Virus record (IMG/VR): IMGVR_UViG_2671180669_000005
Location: 1 to 5,121 of that record
Length of the DNA stretch: 5,121 nucleotides
Source: a virus
Lineage: Duplodnaviria > Heunggongvirae > Uroviricota > Caudoviricetes
Direction: 5' to 3' (one strand)
The notes under the pieces were generated by a model. It had not been told where the DNA came from. It did no database searches and saw only the letters and a program-made list of their open reading frames with translations. This document shows positions 1 to 5,121 of the stretch, piece by piece (within the stretch, counting starts at the first letter, position 1; each line of letters begins with the position of its first letter). The translations under genes and the position numbers were made by a program.

Positions 1-130
1 TCAGGGTATAAGGGGTTATGGCCACCGGACTACCAAACGGCTGCCAGCCCTCTTTCAGTTTATGTGTCAGCTTTTCCGCAAGATCTGACGGCGACGCCGC
101 CCTGACAACATCATAGTGTTTAAATGCCAT
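1..130 (-). CDS. Small hypothetical phage protein, 5' part only (ORF continues past the left edge of the window)
   Basis: ATG at 130..128 opens a frame that stays open to position 2 (MAFKHYDVVRAASPSDLAEKLTHKLKEGWQPFGSPVAITPYTL...). A purine-rich GGTGGAAAG sits 4-12 nt upstream. It lies downstream, in the late direction, of the Q / methylase / tRNA block, where lambdoid phages carry small ORFs ahead of the lysis cassette. Not in the supplied ORF track because no stop lies in the window. Family not assigned. Confidence 0.4.
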   Translation of the reverse strand, partial: MAFKHYDVVRAASPSDLAEKLTHKLKEGWQPFGSPVAITPYTL

Positions 131-390
131 GGTTCTTTCCACCATCTGAAAAATGATTCTTTAAAATACCTGACATGTAATACAGAAAAAACACAAAACC
201 ATACCTTAAATAAAAACCTCATCATCAAGCAGATATGCATGGATAAACTACAAGACGAGATATAAACCACCCTGCATTTAAATAAACAATAAACAACATC
301 AGAAAAATAATTCTGCTCTATGGTTTACATTCAAAAATATCATTTATACTTTTCAGAACATCACCAGCAAGGCATAAACAAGGAAACTAA

Positions 391-726
391 ATGAAGTGGA
401 TTGTGATTGATACAGTTATCCAGCCATCATGCGGAATATCTTTTTCAGTCATATGGAGTAAAATAAAATTAATAATCTGGTATCAATCGGATGCTTTCTT
501 ACCTCCTGAAAGTATATTTACACTGACTCACACAGGCATCATGCTCAATAACAAAGTGCTACCTGTAACCATTTACAACGTAGTACCATTCAATAAAACA
601 TTCTGGAATTTAATCAAAAACAGCCAGGAATGCCCTACAAATACAGATAACGTATTGAATGAATGCTTTAATAACCGTTGCACTCTGCAAATATGTCCTT
701 ATGGGCTAAAACAACAAAGTCCATAA
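391..726 (+). CDS. Hypothetical protein, AT-rich moron-like ORF (111 aa, 7 Cys, rich in I/N/K)
   Basis: Complete ORF with AGGA 6 nt upstream of the ATG (381-384). GC content is visibly lower than the flanking phage genes. It is opposite in orientation to the late operon and lies between the tRNA block and the downstream late genes, the slot where lambdoid phages carry morons. No recognisable motif; could still be a chance ORF in AT-rich DNA. Confidence 0.35.
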
Positions 727-746
727 GGAGTTTACTCACATCTGAC

Positions 747-782
747 AAAATCAATATAAACAGCCCCTCCGGAGAGGGGCTG
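747..782 (-). terminator. Rho-independent terminator candidate (9-bp perfect stem CAGCCCCTC / GAGGGGCTG, 4-nt loop)
   Basis: Perfect inverted repeat at 761-769 / 774-782 with loop CGGA. On the minus strand the hairpin is followed by TTTATATTGATTTTG (U-rich). On the plus strand the hairpin is followed by GAGAGTGG, so it is oriented for minus-strand transcripts, i.e. the tRNA cluster. Confidence 0.5.
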
Positions 783-1017
783 GAGAGTGGCGCTATGTGC
801 CATTGCATGGTGCCGGGTGCCTCCCGGTGAATTCAGTACCAGCACCTGAATCCGCGATTATCCCATATACCTACTCGCTGATTGCCCCTCCGCACAGGGG
901 GATTCACCATGCCAGTTTCTTTTAACAAACTCCCCGCAAACCAGACAACAGTCAACCGCCTGAATTGTGAGACATTTAAAAAAAAGGCCCACAAAAGCGA
1001 GCCAGGGAAAATAAGTG

Positions 1018-1094
1018 TGGCGCGTTGTACTGGATTCGAACCAGTGACCGATTGCTTAGAAGGCAATTGCTCTGTCCGGCTGAGCTAACAACGC
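1018..1094 (-). tRNA. tRNA-Arg (anticodon TCT, reads AGA/AGG)
   Basis: Reverse complement folds as a cloverleaf: acceptor GCGTTGT/ACAACGC, D-stem GCTC/GAGC, anticodon stem ATTGC/GCAAT with loop CTTCTAA, T-arm ACTGG-TTCGAAT-CCAGT, discriminator G, encoded CCA. 77 nt. Comparable to the rare-codon tRNA triplet (ileZ-argN-argO) between Q and stx in 933W-type phages (from memory). Confidence 0.85.
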
Positions 1095-1107
1095 ATGATG
1101 CAGATAA

Positions 1108-1184
1108 TGGACCGCCATCGGGGACTTGAACCCCGCGCAACCAGCTTCGAAGGCTGGCGCTCTTTCCTGATGAGCTAATGGCGG
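1108..1184 (-). tRNA. tRNA-Arg (anticodon TCG, reads CGA)
   Basis: Reverse complement: acceptor CCGCCAT/ATGGCGG (7 perfect pairs), D-stem GCTC/GAGC, anticodon stem CCAGC/GCTGG with loop CTTCGAA, T-arm CGGGG-TTCAAGT-CCCCG, discriminator T, encoded CCA. 77 nt. C1 at the 5' end is unusual but all four stems are perfect. Confidence 0.75.
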
Positions 1185-1191
1185 TATGTGA

Positions 1192-1267
1192 TGGTGGCCC
1201 TTGCTGGATTTGAACCAGCGACCTGGCGATTATGAGTCGCTCGCTCTCACCACTGAGCTAAAGGGCC
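1192..1267 (-). tRNA. tRNA with CAT anticodon (Ile2-lysidine type or Met; ileZ-like)
   Basis: Reverse complement: acceptor GGCCCTT/AAGGGCC, D-arm TAGCTCAGTGGTGAGAGC, anticodon loop CTCATAA, T-arm GCTGG-TTCAAAT-CCAGC, discriminator A, encoded CCA. 76 nt. Ile versus Met cannot be decided from sequence alone. Confidence 0.8.
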
Positions 1268-1316
1268 GGGAGCAGAATAATAATGGTGCGTAATTAATTC
1301 TGCAATCTCATCCGTT

Positions 1317-2366
1317 TCAAACGATTAAATCCTGAACTTCCCTGACTGTCTGCTCAAAACGTCCGGTCTCCAGTTCAACGCCAATCGCACGACGCCCGAG
1401 CGCCAGTGCCGCTTTTACCGTTGAACCTGAGCCCATAAAAAAATCTGCAACCAGGTCTCCCGGACGACTGCTTGCGCTGATTATCTGCTGCAGCATTTCT
1501 GCCGGTTTTTCGCACGGATGTTTCCCGGGATAGAACTGCACCGGTTTATGTGTCCACACATCCGTGTACGGCACCTGCGCCGTCACACCAAAATACCGCC
1601 GCAGATGCTTATATTCACTCTGCAGCTCCACATACTGCCGGTTCAGTGACGTATACGTATCCACCAGCTGGTGGTGGGGCTTTTCCAGTTCACCGCGCTG
1701 ATGTTTCTCTTCTGCCACCCGGGCAAACAGCGACTGTAATTTCAGATAATCGCTTTCGTTCGGTAGCTGCCACTGACTGGCACTGAACCAGTGCGACACC
1801 ATGTTTTTCTTTCCTGTGGCATCTGCAATCTGTTTTGCCGTTATCCCCAGGGCAGCTCGCGCATCACGAAAGTAAGAAATCAGCGGGGCCATCACATGCT
1901 GTTTCAGTGCACTGCCCTTCGCCGCATACCCGGCATCTTTCGGACGATACGGCCCCTGATAATGTTCCGCGAACAGAATGCGCTCTGTGGCGGGGAAATA
2001 CGCCCGCAGGCTTTCCTTGTTGCATCCGTTCCAGCGTCCGGACGGCTTCGCCCAGATAATATGGTTCAGCACACTGAAGCGTTCACGCATCATGATTTCG
2101 ATATCAGATGCCAGGCGATGACCACAGAACAGGTAAAGACTTCCGGCAGGTTTCAGCACCCGCCAGAACTGCGCCAGACACTGGTCCAGCCACTTCAGGT
2201 AATCATCGTCGCCCTTCCACTGGTTATCCCAGCCCTCAGGCTTCACTTTAAAGTACGGCGGGTCCGTGACTATCAGGTCAACAGAATTTTCGGGTAACGA
2301 CCGGATAAATTCCAGGCAGTCGGCGTTGATTAACTCACAACTGGATATTTTTACAGTATTAAGCAT
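1317..2366 (-). CDS. Beta-class N6-adenine (possibly N4-cytosine) DNA methyltransferase, CcrM-like fold, no cognate restriction gene in the window (apparent orphan)
   Basis: 349-aa ORF. N-terminal motif IV SVDLIVTDPPY with the preceding LINADCLEFIRSLPENSVDL closely resembling the CcrM N-terminus (from memory). HPCEKP is the beta-class HPxxKP motif. C-terminal AdoMet motif I DLVADFFMGSGST. Motif order IV then I defines the beta class. The central segment LGITAKQIADATGKKNMVSHW looks like a helix-turn-helix insertion. No Shine-Dalgarno is evident upstream of the ATG. Confidence 0.9.
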   Translation of the reverse strand: MLNTVKISSCELINADCLEFIRSLPENSVDLIVTDPPYFKVKPEGWDNQWKGDDDYLKWLDQCLAQFWRVLKPAGSLYLFCGHRLASDIEIMMRERFSVLNHIIWAKPSGRWNGCNKESLRAYFPATERILFAEHYQGPYRPKDAGYAAKGSALKQHVMAPLISYFRDARAALGITAKQIADATGKKNMVSHWFSASQWQLPNESDYLKLQSLFARVAEEKHQRGELEKPHHQLVDTYTSLNRQYVELQSEYKHLRRYFGVTAQVPYTDVWTHKPVQFYPGKHPCEKPAEMLQQIISASSRPGDLVADFFMGSGSTVKAALALGRRAIGVELETGRFEQTVREVQDLIV

Positions 2367-2458
2367 GGATCATTAAGCCTGTCTCTGATAGGCTCATTCT
2401 GCTTTTGCGCAAAGCAGTGGGCCTGAGGTTTGCTTGTGAACCCAACGCATGAGCAGAT

Positions 2459-2489
2459 GGCTGGTGGGTGCCCCTAACACCCACCAGCC
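2459..2489 (-). other. 12-bp perfect inverted repeat / stem-loop in the methyltransferase leader (copy 1)
   Basis: GGCTGGTGGGTG (2459-2470), 7-nt spacer, CACCCACCAGCC (2478-2489). No U-tract on either strand, so it is not an intrinsic terminator. Candidate RNA structure or a dimeric-protein operator. Confidence 0.5.
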
Positions 2490-2502
2490 GCCCATTTACC
2501 AC

Positions 2503-2530
2503 AAATAAAAAAGCCTTCACTGCGGAAGGC
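2503..2530 (-). terminator. Rho-independent terminator at the 3' end of the winged-helix gene (copy 1)
   Basis: Minus strand reads GCCTTC-CGCAGT-GAAGGC followed by TTTTTTATTTG. The gene's TGA stop lies inside the hairpin. Confidence 0.6.
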
Positions 2531-2714
2531 GTCTGTAACAACCGAACTGATAGTCTGCCAGACCCGCCATAACCAGCTGGGTCAGTATTAACTGGCAGCG
2601 TTCGCGTGAAAGGTAAGTATTCTGCGCTATCTCCCCGACTGTCGCCGGTTCGGTAACGCTTAATTCATTAAACACCACTCTGGCGGTTTCTGTCATATCC
2701 TGCTGTTTTAGCAT
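2517..2714 (-). CDS. Small winged-helix / HTH protein (65 aa), PapI/FaeA-like architecture (tentative), copy 1
   Basis: Encodes the same 65 aa as copy 2 (MLKQQDMTETARVVFNELSVTEPATVGEIAQNTYLSRERCQLILTQLVMAGLADYQFGCYRRLPQ). Start placed at ATG 2714..2712, which has AGGGA about 8 nt upstream. The supplied 94-aa ORF (2517..2801) is an upstream frame extension created by a 2-nt indel and is probably not translated. Confidence 0.55.
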   Translation of the reverse strand: MLKQQDMTETARVVFNELSVTEPATVGEIAQNTYLSRERCQLILTQLVMAGLADYQFGCYRRLPQ

Positions 2715-2836
2715 GTCTTTTTCCCTTTTCCGGTTAACGTGACACACCAATAACTCTTGTCGAAAAAGCCAGCAAGCTGAAAGACAGGTATTCACCGCCA
2801 CCAGCGCGTTTACTGTACTGACGCGATTTCAGTCAT

Positions 2837-2860
2837 AAAAAACCCGCCAGGCGGCGGGGT
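2837..2860 (-). terminator. tR'-like intrinsic terminator (copy 1)
   Basis: Minus strand reads CCCGCC-GCCT-GGCGGG followed by TTTTTT. About 40 nt downstream of the AACGAT pause element of PR' copy 1. Confidence 0.6.
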
Positions 2861-2895
2861 GTAAAAAATCTTCTAACGTCAGGCATAAAACGCCC

Positions 2896-2935
2896 ATCGT
2901 TAGAGCAAATTTACCACAGATTCGGGAAAAATCAA
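2896..2935 (-). promoter_or_regulatory. PR'-like late promoter with qut-type pause element (copy 1)
   Basis: Minus strand: -35 TTGATT (2935..2930), 16-nt spacer, extended -10 TGgTAAATT (-10 at 2913..2908), then tgctct AACGATGGGCG (AACGAT at 2901..2896). The -10 TAAATT and downstream AACGATGGG match the lambda PR'/qut arrangement as I recall it. Confidence 0.55.
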
Positions 2936-2940
2936 CAACA

Positions 2941-3359
2941 CTATCGCGTTACCCTCTTTAACTGCCGCTCCGCCCATGCCTCTTCAATGTCAAACCGAAC
3001 CACCAACGTATCGTAAAAGCGTTTCACTGATTTTTTCCACGTATCAAGCGTGATAGCACTCGTCACTTTGCATATGGCATTAAATGCCTCCGTTGATGGC
3101 AGCCTTTCACAGCCACGACCACCACAACGCTGGCAGTCTCTGATAACAGGCATACCACGTTTTACCGACTCTTCACGATGAATGGCGACACCACGCCCAC
3201 GGCAATCCTTACAGGCGGTGGAAACCTCACCCTTTCCGCCACACTCCGGACAGGCAACTTTTACCACCTCCCGATTTTTTTTCCATTCTTCCCAGTAAGA
3301 CGGATACACACCTTTCGTACACTTTGCCCATACCGGCGGCTTACCATCCGGATACTGGA
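2941..3359 (-). pseudogene. Q' : 3' fragment of an antiterminator Q gene (about 139 codons), lacking the N-terminal half
   Basis: Frame ends at TAG 2943..2941 and aligns to Q residues from QYPDGKPPVW to the C-terminal VTR, with about 14 aa substitutions concentrated in the last ~50 residues. It begins at the duplication junction with no ATG (the supplied ORF starts at a TTG at 3363). The duplicated methyltransferase ATG (3389..3387) reads into it out of frame, giving a 42-aa chimeric ORF (3261..3389). Confidence 0.65.
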
Positions 3360-3481
3360 ACAACTGGATATTTTTACAGTATTAAGCATGGATCATTAAG
3401 CCTGTCTCTGATAGGCTCATTCTGCTTTTGCGCAAAGCAGTGGGCCTGAGGTTTGCTTGTGAACCCAACGCATGAGCAGAT

Positions 3482-3512
3482 GGCTGGTGGGTGCCCCTAA
3501 CACCCACCAGCC
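3482..3512 (-). other. 12-bp perfect inverted repeat / stem-loop (copy 2)
   Basis: Identical to 2459-2489: GGCTGGTGGGTG, 7-nt spacer, CACCCACCAGCC. Confidence 0.5.
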
Positions 3513-3525
3513 GCCCATTTACCAC

Positions 3526-3553
3526 AAATAAAAAAGCCTTCACTGCGGAAGGC
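3526..3553 (-). terminator. Rho-independent terminator at the 3' end of the winged-helix gene (copy 2)
   Basis: Same hairpin GCCTTC-CGCAGT-GAAGGC plus TTTTTTATTTG on the minus strand; the stop codon is in the loop. Confidence 0.6.
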
Positions 3554-3737
3554 GTCTGTAACAACCGAACTGATAGTCTGCCAGACCCGCCATAACCAGC
3601 TGGGTCAGTATTAACTGGCAGCGTTCGCGTGAAAGGTAAGTATTCTGCGCTATCTCCCCGACTGTCGCCGGTTCGGTAACGCTTAATTCATTAAACACCA
3701 CTCTGGCGGTTTCTGTCATATCCTGCTGTTTTAGCAT
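3540..3737 (-). CDS. Small winged-helix / HTH protein (65 aa), PapI/FaeA-like architecture (tentative), copy 2
   Basis: ORF with AAGGA 6 nt upstream of the ATG. Predicted helix - turn (EPATVGEIAQNT) - recognition helix (RERCQLILTQLVMAGL), consistent with a small winged-helix regulator. The EPxT...IA...LS...LLT...G spacing resembles PapI/FaeA as I recall it. Protein is identical in both copies while the upstream non-coding DNA carries an indel. Confidence 0.6.
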   Translation of the reverse strand: MLKQQDMTETARVVFNELSVTEPATVGEIAQNTYLSRERCQLILTQLVMAGLADYQFGCYRRLPQ

Positions 3738-3857
3738 GTCTTTTCCTTTTCCGGTTAACGTGACACACCAATAACTCTTGTCGAAAAAGCCAGCAAGCTG
3801 AAAGACAGGTATTCACCGCCACCAGCGCGTTTACTGTACTGACGCGATTTCAGTCAT

Positions 3858-3880
3858 AAAAAACCCGCTCGGCGGCGGGT
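3858..3880 (-). terminator. tR'-like intrinsic terminator (copy 2)
   Basis: Minus strand reads CCCGC-CGCCGA-GCGGG followed by TTTTTT. Shorter stem than copy 1. Confidence 0.55.
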
Positions 3881-3916
3881 TGTAGAAACTCTTCTAACGT
3901 CAGGCATAAAACGCCC

Positions 3917-3956
3917 ATCGTTATGACGAATTTACCACAGATTCCGGAAAAATCAA
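3917..3956 (-). promoter_or_regulatory. PR'-like late promoter with qut-type pause element, immediately downstream of Q (copy 2)
   Basis: Minus strand: -35 TTGATT (3956..3951), 16-nt spacer, TGgTAAATT (-10 at 3934..3929), cgtcat AACGATGGGCG (AACGAT at 3922..3917). Starts 6 nt after the Q stop codon. Confidence 0.6.
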
Positions 3957-3961
3957 CCTTG

Positions 3962-4783
3962 TTACCTAGTTACCTTTTTTAACTGCCGCTCAGCCCATGC
4001 TTCTTCAATATCAAACCGGGTCACCAGCGCATCATAAAATTTCTTAACTGTTTTTTCCCATGACGCGCGTGTTATCTGGTTTGTCACCTCGCATATAGCA
4101 TTAAATGCCTCCGTTGATGGTAGTCTTTCATAGCCACGACCACCACAACGCTGGCAGTCTCTGATAACAGGCATACCACGTTTTACCGACTCTTCACGAT
4201 GAATGGCGACACCACGCCCACGGCAATCCTTACAGGCGGTGGAAACCTCACCCTTTCCGCCACACTCCGGACAGGCAACTTTTACCACCTCCCTGACTTT
4301 TTTCCATTCTTCCCAGTAAGACGGATACACACCTTTCGTACACTTTGCCCATACCGGCGGCTTACCATCCGGATACTGGATCTTGTTTGTAAAAACCTCG
4401 CTTTCAATAAATTTTTTTCCGTGACAGCAGGGGCACTGTTTTTTGCTCGCCGCGCTACGGGCATAATCTTCAAACGCATACGAAGCCATAATACGCATCA
4501 CTGCCGGTTTTATTTCTGCCGGGAGTTTTCTTAACGCCGCCACGCGATCACACCGACTGAGTGCATATTCTGTCAGCAATTCTGTTGCCCGCTCTCTGTC
4601 ATTCATACTAATGCCCATTTTCCCAAGGAACGCAGAAAACCCCATCTCAGCCCGATTCTGTGTCATGCCCTGCGCGGCCATCACATCAGTGATACTCAGC
4701 GCATCTTTCGACGTTGAGGCCGATGCATCAGTCAGGCCGGGGGATTTTGGGGAGTAGTATTTCGGTAAATCTTCCAGTTTCAT
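3962..4783 (-). CDS. Q: Late-gene antiterminator Q, lambda-Q family, with an enlarged zinc-binding region (four CxxCxGxG-type motifs)
   Basis: 273 aa. Shares with lambda Q (recalled sequence) SPKSP near the N-terminus, DVMAA.GM, YA..DY.RSAA, CxxCHG, C.RCxGxGY.R.PS, W..TVK..YDALV and a C-terminal VTR. Contains CPCCHGKK, CPECGGKG, CKDCRGRG and CQRCGGRG. Start ATG overlaps the rusA stop (ATGA). Followed directly by a PR'/qut-like promoter. Confidence 0.85.
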   Translation of the reverse strand: MKLEDLPKYYSPKSPGLTDASASTSKDALSITDVMAAQGMTQNRAEMGFSAFLGKMGISMNDRERATELLTEYALSRCDRVAALRKLPAEIKPAVMRIMASYAFEDYARSAASKKQCPCCHGKKFIESEVFTNKIQYPDGKPPVWAKCTKGVYPSYWEEWKKVREVVKVACPECGGKGEVSTACKDCRGRGVAIHREESVKRGMPVIRDCQRCGGRGYERLPSTEAFNAICEVTNQITRASWEKTVKKFYDALVTRFDIEEAWAERQLKKVTR

Positions 4784-5121
4784 TTTTTGACCTGCCCTTC
4801 AAGCATTATGGGGTAAATCTTCACCCCCAGACGTCCACCAGATACTGGCTGAGCACGAACGATATTGATTTCATCAAACTGCTCATCGTCCATTAGCAAC
4901 CCCGCATGCGTCAGCGCATCCAGCGGCGCTTTCAGAATATTGTCCAGGTCACGGCGGCGCTTATCCGGTGGTTCTGCAATAATTTTTATTGCCAACCTTC
5001 CGGACAGGCTTAATTTCAGCCGCTGCTGGCGAACAATAAGCGCCACTGCCCGGCGATAACGCTCCCCGGCTTTTGATACAAAATATGTGCTGCCACGACG
5101 ACGCCAGTAAGTGTTCACCGT
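4780..5121 (-). CDS. rusA: Holliday-junction resolvase RusA (N-terminal ~12-15 aa lie beyond the right edge)
   Basis: Frame is open to the window edge; the supplied start at 5118 is an internal GTG. Matches the recalled RusA sequence: YxxxRGxxxVSxxG near the N-terminus, catalytic-region DKRRRDLDN (RusA DRRRRDLDN), and GGRL near the C-terminus. Sits immediately upstream of Q as in lambdoid nin regions. Confidence 0.85.
   Translation of the reverse strand, partial: TVNTYWRRRGSTYFVSKAGERYRRAVALIVRQQRLKLSLSGRLAIKIIAEPPDKRRRDLDNILKAPLDALTHAGLLMDDEQFDEINIVRAQPVSGGRLGVKIYPIMLEGQVKK

Follow-up and report, generated by a model that had tools for sequence, protein, structure and literature searches.

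The Shiga toxin (Stx) phage phiPA8 encodes a small predicted winged-helix-turn-helix protein, PNB-2 (EcoPA8orf6775P), immediately upstream of the adenine methyltransferase M.EcoPA8orf6770P. The two genes are co-transcribed and their products form a 1:1 complex in which PNB-2, which the enzyme needs, directs it to 16S rRNA; this is the only such pair in these phages that has been studied experimentally (Gong, Chakraborty and Koudelka 2023, PMC10810198). A further adenine methyltransferase, M.EcoGII, modifies DNA and RNA without sequence specificity (PMC5778455; also PMC7544214, PMC6602927); it is fully active alone, stays silent in lysogens and is deleterious if expressed constitutively (PMC5778455). 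Here we analyse a 5,121-nt stretch of a tailed-phage record (IMGVR_UViG_2671180669_000005, positions 1 to 5,121; 'the window'), whose relevant late-region features lie on the minus strand, and focus on a small open reading frame (ORF) of 65 codons, ORF65, that stands ahead of an adenine methyltransferase gene resembling that of M.EcoGII. Its closest described relatives are SfV orf47, phiP27 L23 and mEp460_052, which belong to its family and occupy an equivalent position, with Q and a terminator ahead of the small ORF and the methylase after it, followed by lysis genes or by tRNAs and stx; ORF65 is 94–100% identical to the SfV and phiP27 proteins and 53% identical to the mEp460 subfamily. From these loci it shows no difference in kind, and the window is unusual only in holding two copies. 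On its own ORF65 is ordinary, a hypothetical phage gene catalogued since SfV and phiP27 were sequenced; what is new is that it belongs to a three-part cassette whose parts are separable and which includes a leader RNA.

ORF65 is genuine as a gene and evolves under purifying selection. A search for related loci yielded 34, one per species (hereafter species loci), with identity down to 41%, from Escherichia, Salmonella, Klebsiella, Citrobacter, Enterobacter, Kluyvera, Buttiauxella, Mangrovibacter, Mixta, Proteus, Providencia and Plesiomonas. The gene has 62–67 codons and the same start in 32 of the 34, and the ratio of non-synonymous to synonymous substitution (dN/dS) lies between 0.03 and 0.32 in pairs with estimable dS, dS being saturated in the most distant pairs. 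ORF65 matches PHROG 331 (E=1.4e-37, 128.7 bits, residues 1–64 on profile positions 35–98 of 111), a family annotated as of unknown function whose members include SfV orf47 and phiP27 L23; the extra N-terminal positions of this profile are over-long gene calls. RefSeq names the proteins either 'hypothetical protein' or 'TrmB family transcriptional regulator'. The family is a narrow orphan group of Enterobacterales phages: it comprises 338 clusters at 90% identity, and a search of 1.84 billion representative proteins at E ≤ 0.001 yields relatives that fall into only 84 clusters at 50% identity. Domain fusions were absent from the family, two long hits (P0175 and P0181) being repeat proteins; defence-system models did not match ORF65, and a literature search, also by peptide, found no paper on it. 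Among 50,697 phage records ORF65 occurs in 57, including SfV, phiP27, mEp460, phage cdtI and many Stx2a/c/d/k phages; lambda and 933W are not among them, in line with the first-pass annotation of this DNA, which was aware of no such gene at this position in either. The region is carried by at least 973 of 5,426 complete E. coli genomes. A chance ORF or annotation artefact in a non-coding late leader might be suspected from the short length, from annotated starts that vary inconsistently between 65 and 106 amino acids and from the lack of a Pfam match above threshold. Against such an origin stand a length and start conserved to 41% identity, dN/dS far below 1, a confident predicted fold and the 338 clusters, and we regard its likelihood as negligible.

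The protein is predicted to be a stand-alone winged helix of 62–67 residues. In the best AlphaFold2 (AF2) model three helices (H1, residues 4–21; H2, 26–33; H3, 37–49) precede a β hairpin (53–62), with a predicted local distance difference test (pLDDT) of 82.4 and a predicted template modelling score (pTM) of 0.65, the remaining four models scoring just 54–65. Foldseek comparison with the PDB returned matches of probability 1.00 and template modelling (TM) scores of 0.70–0.78 to winged-helix domains of IclR, SelB, Z-alpha and an O-methyltransferase, all of them generic; model and matches together bear out the earlier suggestion of a winged-helix protein. Sequence comparison with proteins of solved structure gave only a chance match, to YraP (E=0.63). 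Pfam held no match to ORF65 above threshold, and its sub-threshold matches among 21 diverse family members were to TrmB (16/21), DprA_WH (14/21; best E=5e-6) and MarR_2 (12/21). On TrmB (PF01978) ORF65 itself scores 18 bits (E=0.0026), under the 25.6-bit gathering score, and the best family member reaches E=3.7e-4, values that suggest resemblance rather than membership. Unlike TrmB, MarR and DprA_WH proteins, ORF65 is a bare 65-residue domain without dimerisation or effector parts. Weak as they are, these similarities point to DNA-binding winged-helix families, and we count them towards a regulatory role. Conservation within the family centres on an N-terminal MLKQxDMT peptide and on a nearly invariant helix 3 (C-Q-L-I-L-T-Q-L-x-M-A-G-L), the recognition helix; both recur in hits of a hidden Markov model (HMM) search found without word patterns.

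ORF65 stands about 150 nt upstream of the methyltransferase gene in 32 of the 34 species loci and in 74 of 75 viral loci that a methyltransferase query recovered, so the adjacency noticed at first pass is tight; SfV and mEp460 share the arrangement. The pairing holds across Q types, phiP27 having a different Q and a GIY-YIG gene and about half of the viral loci giving no match to the Q of the window (Q273), and its context is always a phage late operon in the order Q, ORF, methylase, lysis genes. It is nevertheless not obligatory. With the Plesiomonas methyltransferase as query we recovered 69 further, more diverse viral loci, and in most of these a profile built on the spacer that separates ORF65 from the methyltransferase matched directly before the enzyme gene; a clear ORF65 was present in only 5. 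Methyltransferase homologues without ORF65 are 55–71% identical, and loci with and without the gene interleave in the methyltransferase tree. One further candidate for a methyltransferase without ORF65, L094, was set aside, its contig carrying N at the join. Since the leader and methyltransferase occur without ORF65, these two make up the core unit, to which ORF65 is added as a cassette together with its upstream motif and downstream hairpin; for the enzyme, ORF65 is dispensable.

The enzyme in the window has 349 residues and the motif order DPPY...FxGxG, and it is 95% identical to the methyltransferase of phage 1720a-02, which has been called very similar to the likewise 349-residue M.EcoGII (PMC5778455). 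By way of the phage 1720a-02 enzyme, its sequence probably places it in the non-specific M.EcoGI/GII family. The first-pass annotation had read the HTH segment of ORF65 as PapI/FaeA-like and had imagined a methylation-sensitive epigenetic switch, or a controller analogous to the C proteins of restriction-modification (R-M) systems. PapI/FaeA membership was rejected: PF04703 does not match ORF65 at E ≤ 1 (cut-off 20.7 bits), nor does it figure in the list of families to which at least two of the 21 diverse members match, whereas PapI, the positive control, its sequence validated by this match, scores 110.1 bits (E=6.5e-32). hhalign of the family alignment against PapI gave a probability of 1.2% over 28 columns. 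The profile search proposed at first pass returned winged-helix resemblance, below threshold, and nothing of FaeA/PapI. What ORF65 shares with PapI/FaeA is similar size, a generic winged-helix fold and an HTH that aligns in register over those 28 columns; it lacks the family signal and sits in a phage late operon, not a fimbrial one, with no evident GATC/Lrp switch. With C proteins such as C.PvuII and C.AhdI it shares the place of a small DNA-binding protein upstream in a methyltransferase unit, a conserved sequence before its own gene and the presumed timing of a dangerous enzyme. C proteins proper belong to the Xre type: their HTH fold is all-helical, they bind as dimers to palindromic C-boxes, and the endonuclease is the main object of their control. 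ORF65 gave no HTH_3/Xre match and is predicted as a winged helix, and its locus has neither a restriction gene nor a palindromic C-box, the upstream motif not being a dyad. A site-specific switch is also a poor fit to a partner enzyme whose family is reported to be sequence-non-specific, which leaves no defined methylation site to read and a PapI-style switch without an obvious substrate (PMC5778455). We regard either a strict C-protein controller or a PapI/FaeA-type switch as very improbable; a C-protein-like controller role is possible as a mechanism, not as family membership.

Two sequence elements flank ORF65. The first, 23 nt upstream of its ATG, is a 37-bp motif of the form CTTGCTG-N11-AAGAGTTATTGGTGTGTCA, that is, CTTGCTG-N11-(A/C)AGAGTTAyyTGTrTGTCA; every locus that bears ORF65 has it, and it is missing from those that lack ORF65. 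There is one copy per phage, and neither phiP27 nor a 16-kb E. coli prophage segment contained further copies that would indicate a regulon. The spacing of its two halves mimics a −35/−10 pair, and we found no RNA structure in the motif or the ORF65 5′ region; we consider it a candidate promoter/operator or 5′-untranslated-region (5′-UTR) site. The second is a hairpin at the stop codon, GCCTTC-CGCAGT-GAAGGC followed by T6 (6 bp, 6-nt loop, −8.9 kcal/mol), in a stretch (2300–4000) where 7 terminator-like sites were counted and shuffles gave 2.1 ± 1.6. The stop codon had been placed in the loop, which is nearly exact: the TGA consists of the last loop base and the first two bases of the 3′ arm. 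The stems covary in Enterobacteriaceae loci with the stop codon always in the loop, and the hairpin was not found in Proteus/Providencia loci. A ribosome finishing ORF65 would melt this hairpin, so translation could oppose termination.

From these features we tentatively propose that ORF65 may be an accessory nucleic-acid-binding regulator of a toxic-methyltransferase cassette, a role that seems quite possible if short of probable. ORF65 would be the first cistron of the Q-dependent late transcript, in a cassette ordered as 37-bp motif, ORF65, stop-codon hairpin-terminator, leader of about 140 nt and M.EcoGII-type methyltransferase, and would help to gate that cassette. Because its Shine-Dalgarno sequence is normal, the protein would be made first and in excess. 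Its likeliest target may be the 37-bp motif, the only sequence that always travels with it, which would imply autoregulation at a promoter/operator or 5′-UTR site. The ORF65 terminator and the leader would then act as two more barriers, keeping the deleterious methyltransferase silent outside late lytic growth.

Several observations weigh against this proposal. The wing and the N-terminal half of helix 3, the usual DNA-contacting parts, differ between clades, and the net charge of the family (−5 to +3, median near −1) is unusual for a small DNA binder. The 37-bp motif lacks dyad symmetry and departs from a canonical sigma-70 promoter, its −10-like hexamer having G as the last base, and a promoter scan finds no promoter there. 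At four loci (L124, L126, L169 and L180) an intrinsic terminator abuts the leader directly and the methyltransferase is kept without ORF65; at L178 ORF65 is deleted down to a relic of its 3′ hairpin, and at L029 it has a stop at codon 23, the methyltransferase being intact in both. If ORF65 regulates the methyltransferase, it therefore does so as an optional layer on top, and its synteny could be linkage inherited from one old insertion. Loss of the ORF beside an unchanged methyltransferase locus is what the first-pass annotation had itself named as contrary evidence; in part this is what we find (L178, L029, L124, L169 and L180), and it weakens a controller role.

The near-neutral or acidic protein, with its MLKQxDMT peptide and helix 3 conserved while the wing varies, would suit a different function, that of a methyltransferase partner subunit modelled on PNB-2: ORF65 would bind the enzyme and shift what is methylated, or restrain it as an antitoxin or targeting factor. 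Such a function would draw on the Stx-phage precedent of a small, upstream, co-transcribed winged-helix protein that co-purifies with a methyltransferase (PMC10810198), on tight synteny in more than 100 loci and on the fact that the work on M.EcoGII used the methyltransferase gene by itself, so that its non-specificity was measured without ORF65. The parallel with PNB-2 is one of analogy, not membership. PNB-2 has 143 residues, is not homologous to ORF65 (BLASTP E=0.14 over 25 residues) and overlaps the start of its methyltransferase gene, whereas ORF65 is separated from its neighbour by a terminator and a 150-nt leader, with no translational coupling. The enzymes differ too, that of PNB-2 being an MT-A70 protein (DPPW, 208 residues) of the early region and that of ORF65 a PF01555 protein (DPPY, 349 residues) of the late operon. 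As M.EcoGII is fully active alone and methyltransferase homologues persist without ORF65, we rate a partner subunit as somewhat unlikely.

The losses listed above also suit an independent gene of the 'moron' type, a regulator inserted once between tR′ and the leader that acts elsewhere and whose synteny is merely inherited. The architecture fits, with a conserved motif upstream and a terminator downstream, and distant homologues lie elsewhere in two viral contigs: L129 (2006–2242) and L155 (2004–2240) encode a 78-residue relative (HMM E about 1e-4) that contains ESAEFILEQMIYFGVV and sits upstream of a promoter-like element, terminator, leader and methyltransferase, and so beyond the late promoter; the related contig L126 is without it. 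Of the features expected of a moron, the terminator is present, the gene is missing in related phages and the motif is conserved, though not as a recognisable sigma-70 promoter. Against such an origin, there is no second motif copy in the phage and no other evident target; ORF65 is always beside this methyltransferase family and nowhere else (57 phage records, 34 species loci), and at L019 ORF65 and methyltransferase have decayed together. On balance we think an independent gene unlikely, and return to a regulator of the methyltransferase cassette as the preferred reading.

The leader between ORF65 and the methyltransferase is a strong candidate RNA switch. Its length and sequence are conserved in 31 species loci, and it is also found upstream of methyltransferase homologues without ORF65. 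The 12-bp inverted repeat noticed at first pass corresponds to hairpin P1 (2459–2489), whose arms change compensatorily between species (GGCTGGTGGGTG/CACCCACCAGCC in place of GACTGTAAAAGTG/CACCTTTACAGTC); as these arms covary freely while the recognition helix of ORF65 stays invariant, the repeat is an RNA hairpin, and we rejected it as an ORF65 operator. Beyond P1 there are two mutually exclusive sets of helices, each conserved with compensatory changes. Fold 1 comprises P2, P3-outer (GC 22, AU 8) and P5/P6 and is 92% paired against 24–44% in slid controls; P5 (AGGUCA:UGAUCU) ends at the methyltransferase AUG and sequesters the 6 nt before it, and P6 pairs are of AU, GC and GU types. Fold 2 is built from PL (UGGGC:GCCCA), which carries a double change in L033, and P2′ (UUCGCU:AGCGAA; pair 84–110: CG 11, AU 5, UA 4, UG 4); it is 88% paired against 21–43%. 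These pair counts come from related sequences, from which the structures were in part derived; a sequence-only alignment of 65 distinct leaders gave the same picture, and the G-U pairs fit the sense strand only. Rfam held no match to the leader, the best being P26 on the opposite strand at 24 bits (gathering score 36). A Dam site, GATC, is nearly invariant directly before the methyltransferase ATG (CTGATCTATG, window 2366–2376 and homologous positions), a conservation explained by its pairing with AGGUCA/AGAUCA in the leader. With no Shine-Dalgarno sequence at the methyltransferase ATG and the conserved P5 helix abutting the AUG, the start of the enzyme gene is predicted to be poorly accessible. 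At one locus, L164 (2237–2487), the leader is followed by a 41-residue Cys-rich (CxxC...CxxC) ORF, and the methyltransferase comes only after it.

Taken furthest, the leader and the partner idea would combine as follows. ORF65 would be the missing native partner of M.EcoGII-type enzymes, binding the enzyme or the leader RNA and restricting methylation or neutralising the enzyme until packaging; the leader would be a new two-state RNA switch for translation; and the non-specificity of M.EcoGII would stem partly from study without the upstream gene. The same argument, that an enzyme was studied without its upstream gene, had been made for M.EcoGV and PNB-2; we consider the combined proposal doubtful. 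How phages control M.EcoGII-type enzymes has not been described so far. Enterobacterales phages normally have a conserved small gene, predicted to encode a winged-helix protein, ahead of the enzyme gene, and always a conserved, covarying leader; the two are separable, which makes both the control of the enzyme and its native specificity experimentally approachable. In many Stx2 phages (phiP27 and Stx2a/c/d/k phages) the cassette lies directly upstream of tRNAs and stx, which places its terminator and leader on the path of the toxin transcript.

Table 1 Features of the window, in order of decreasing coordinate
Feature	Position	Strand	Evidence or remark
RusA	4780–5118	minus	
Q antiterminator, 273 amino acids	3962–4783	minus	PF03589 E=2.5e-53; phrog_127
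PR′-like late promoter (TTGATT, extended −10 TGgTAAATT)	3929–3956	minus	second copy (promoter and AACGATGGG) 2893–2935
AACGATGGG element beside PR′-like promoter	3914–3922	minus	
tR′-like intrinsic terminator, hairpin and T run, downstream of PR′	3858–3881	minus	second copy 2837–2859, 5 substitutions
37-bp conserved motif upstream of ORF65	3761–3797	minus	second copy 2740–2776
Shine-Dalgarno AAGGA of ORF65, 6 nt from ATG	3744–3748	minus	sequence, copy alignment; site of the 2-nt indel
ORF65, flagged copy, 65 amino acids, ATG start	3540–3737	minus	ORF list; PHROG 331
Hairpin-terminator at ORF65 stop codon	3526–3553	minus	terminator scan; second copy 2503–2530
Duplication joint	2941–3389	minus	first 27 nt of methyltransferase (3363–3389) fused to Q′ C-terminal fragment (2941–3362)
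ORF65, identical second copy, ahead of intact leader and methyltransferase	2517–2714	minus	ORF list, copy alignment
Structured leader, about 140 nt, ORF65 to methyltransferase ATG	2367–2504	minus	identical copy 3390–3527
β-class N6-adenine methyltransferase, intact, 349 amino acids	1317–2366	minus	PF01555 E=2.3e-44
Three tRNA genes	1018–1267	minus	directly after methyltransferase
STnc100 small RNA match	752–941	minus	Rfam RF02076
IraM-like gene	391–726	plus	

The ORF itself, its ribosome-binding site, the terminator at its stop codon and the identical second copy are all where the first-pass annotation had put them (Table 1). Both copies belong to a 1,023-bp partial tandem duplication (2337–3359 and 3360–4382). 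Read along the minus strand, the features are RusA, Q, PR′, tR′, the flagged ORF65, its hairpin-terminator, a 140-nt spacer and a 27-nt 5′ stub of the methyltransferase gene; after the joint follow the Q fragment, a second PR′ and tR′, the other ORF65 copy with its terminator and spacer, the intact methyltransferase, the tRNAs, STnc100 and, on the plus strand, the IraM-like gene. The flagged copy accordingly precedes only the stub, the intact enzyme gene following the other. At the joint (3360–3362) codon 9 of the methyltransferase meets codon ~134 of Q with no homology, the Q fragment comes from a second Q allele, of which it keeps the last 140 codons, and the promoter-proximal leader ends up fused out of frame to this fragment. 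The TTGATT/TGgTAAATT element ahead of each tR′ is one that we take to resemble lambda PR′; at its threshold a consensus scan reported no promoter at the PR′-like site.

Selection on the protein had been deduced at first pass from the identity of its two copies. That deduction is invalid: the non-coding DNA for about 125 nt upstream and 150 nt downstream is as identical between the copies as ORF65 itself, so the identity reflects recent duplication, and selection is shown instead by the cross-species dN/dS. From tR′ to the joint, 513 nt are the same in both copies save one 2-nt indel, 6–12 nt upstream of the ATG, while the Q C-termini and PR′ elements are only about 90% identical. The methyltransferase-proximal copy matches the upstream sequence of E. 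albertii locus L004, and the Q-proximal copy has the different Q C-terminus. None of 5,426 complete E. coli genomes has the joint, nor does any of 80 viral loci, and the best genome matches cover 4,098 nt, not 5,121; either two prophages recombined illegitimately to give the duplication, or the assembly is chimeric. The indel also bears on the gene model. It breaks an in-frame GTG extension (94 amino acids in copy 1) used by many gene callers, and loci of other species have in-frame stops just upstream of the ORF65 ATG, both of which support the 65-residue ATG model.

Downstream of the methyltransferase, the three tRNAs have a CAT anticodon (Met by ARAGORN, Ile in RefSeq relatives), Arg-TCG and Arg-TCT, an ileZ-argN-argO-type cluster of Stx phages that here follows the enzyme gene directly. 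The STnc100 match (132 bits, gathering score 47) lies downstream of this cluster, where Stx phages carry stx. The IraM-like anti-adapter gene (111 amino acids; NF007393, 162 bits; phrog_4407) has the tRNAs on one side and the SASA/NanS-p esterase gene of the prophage on the other.

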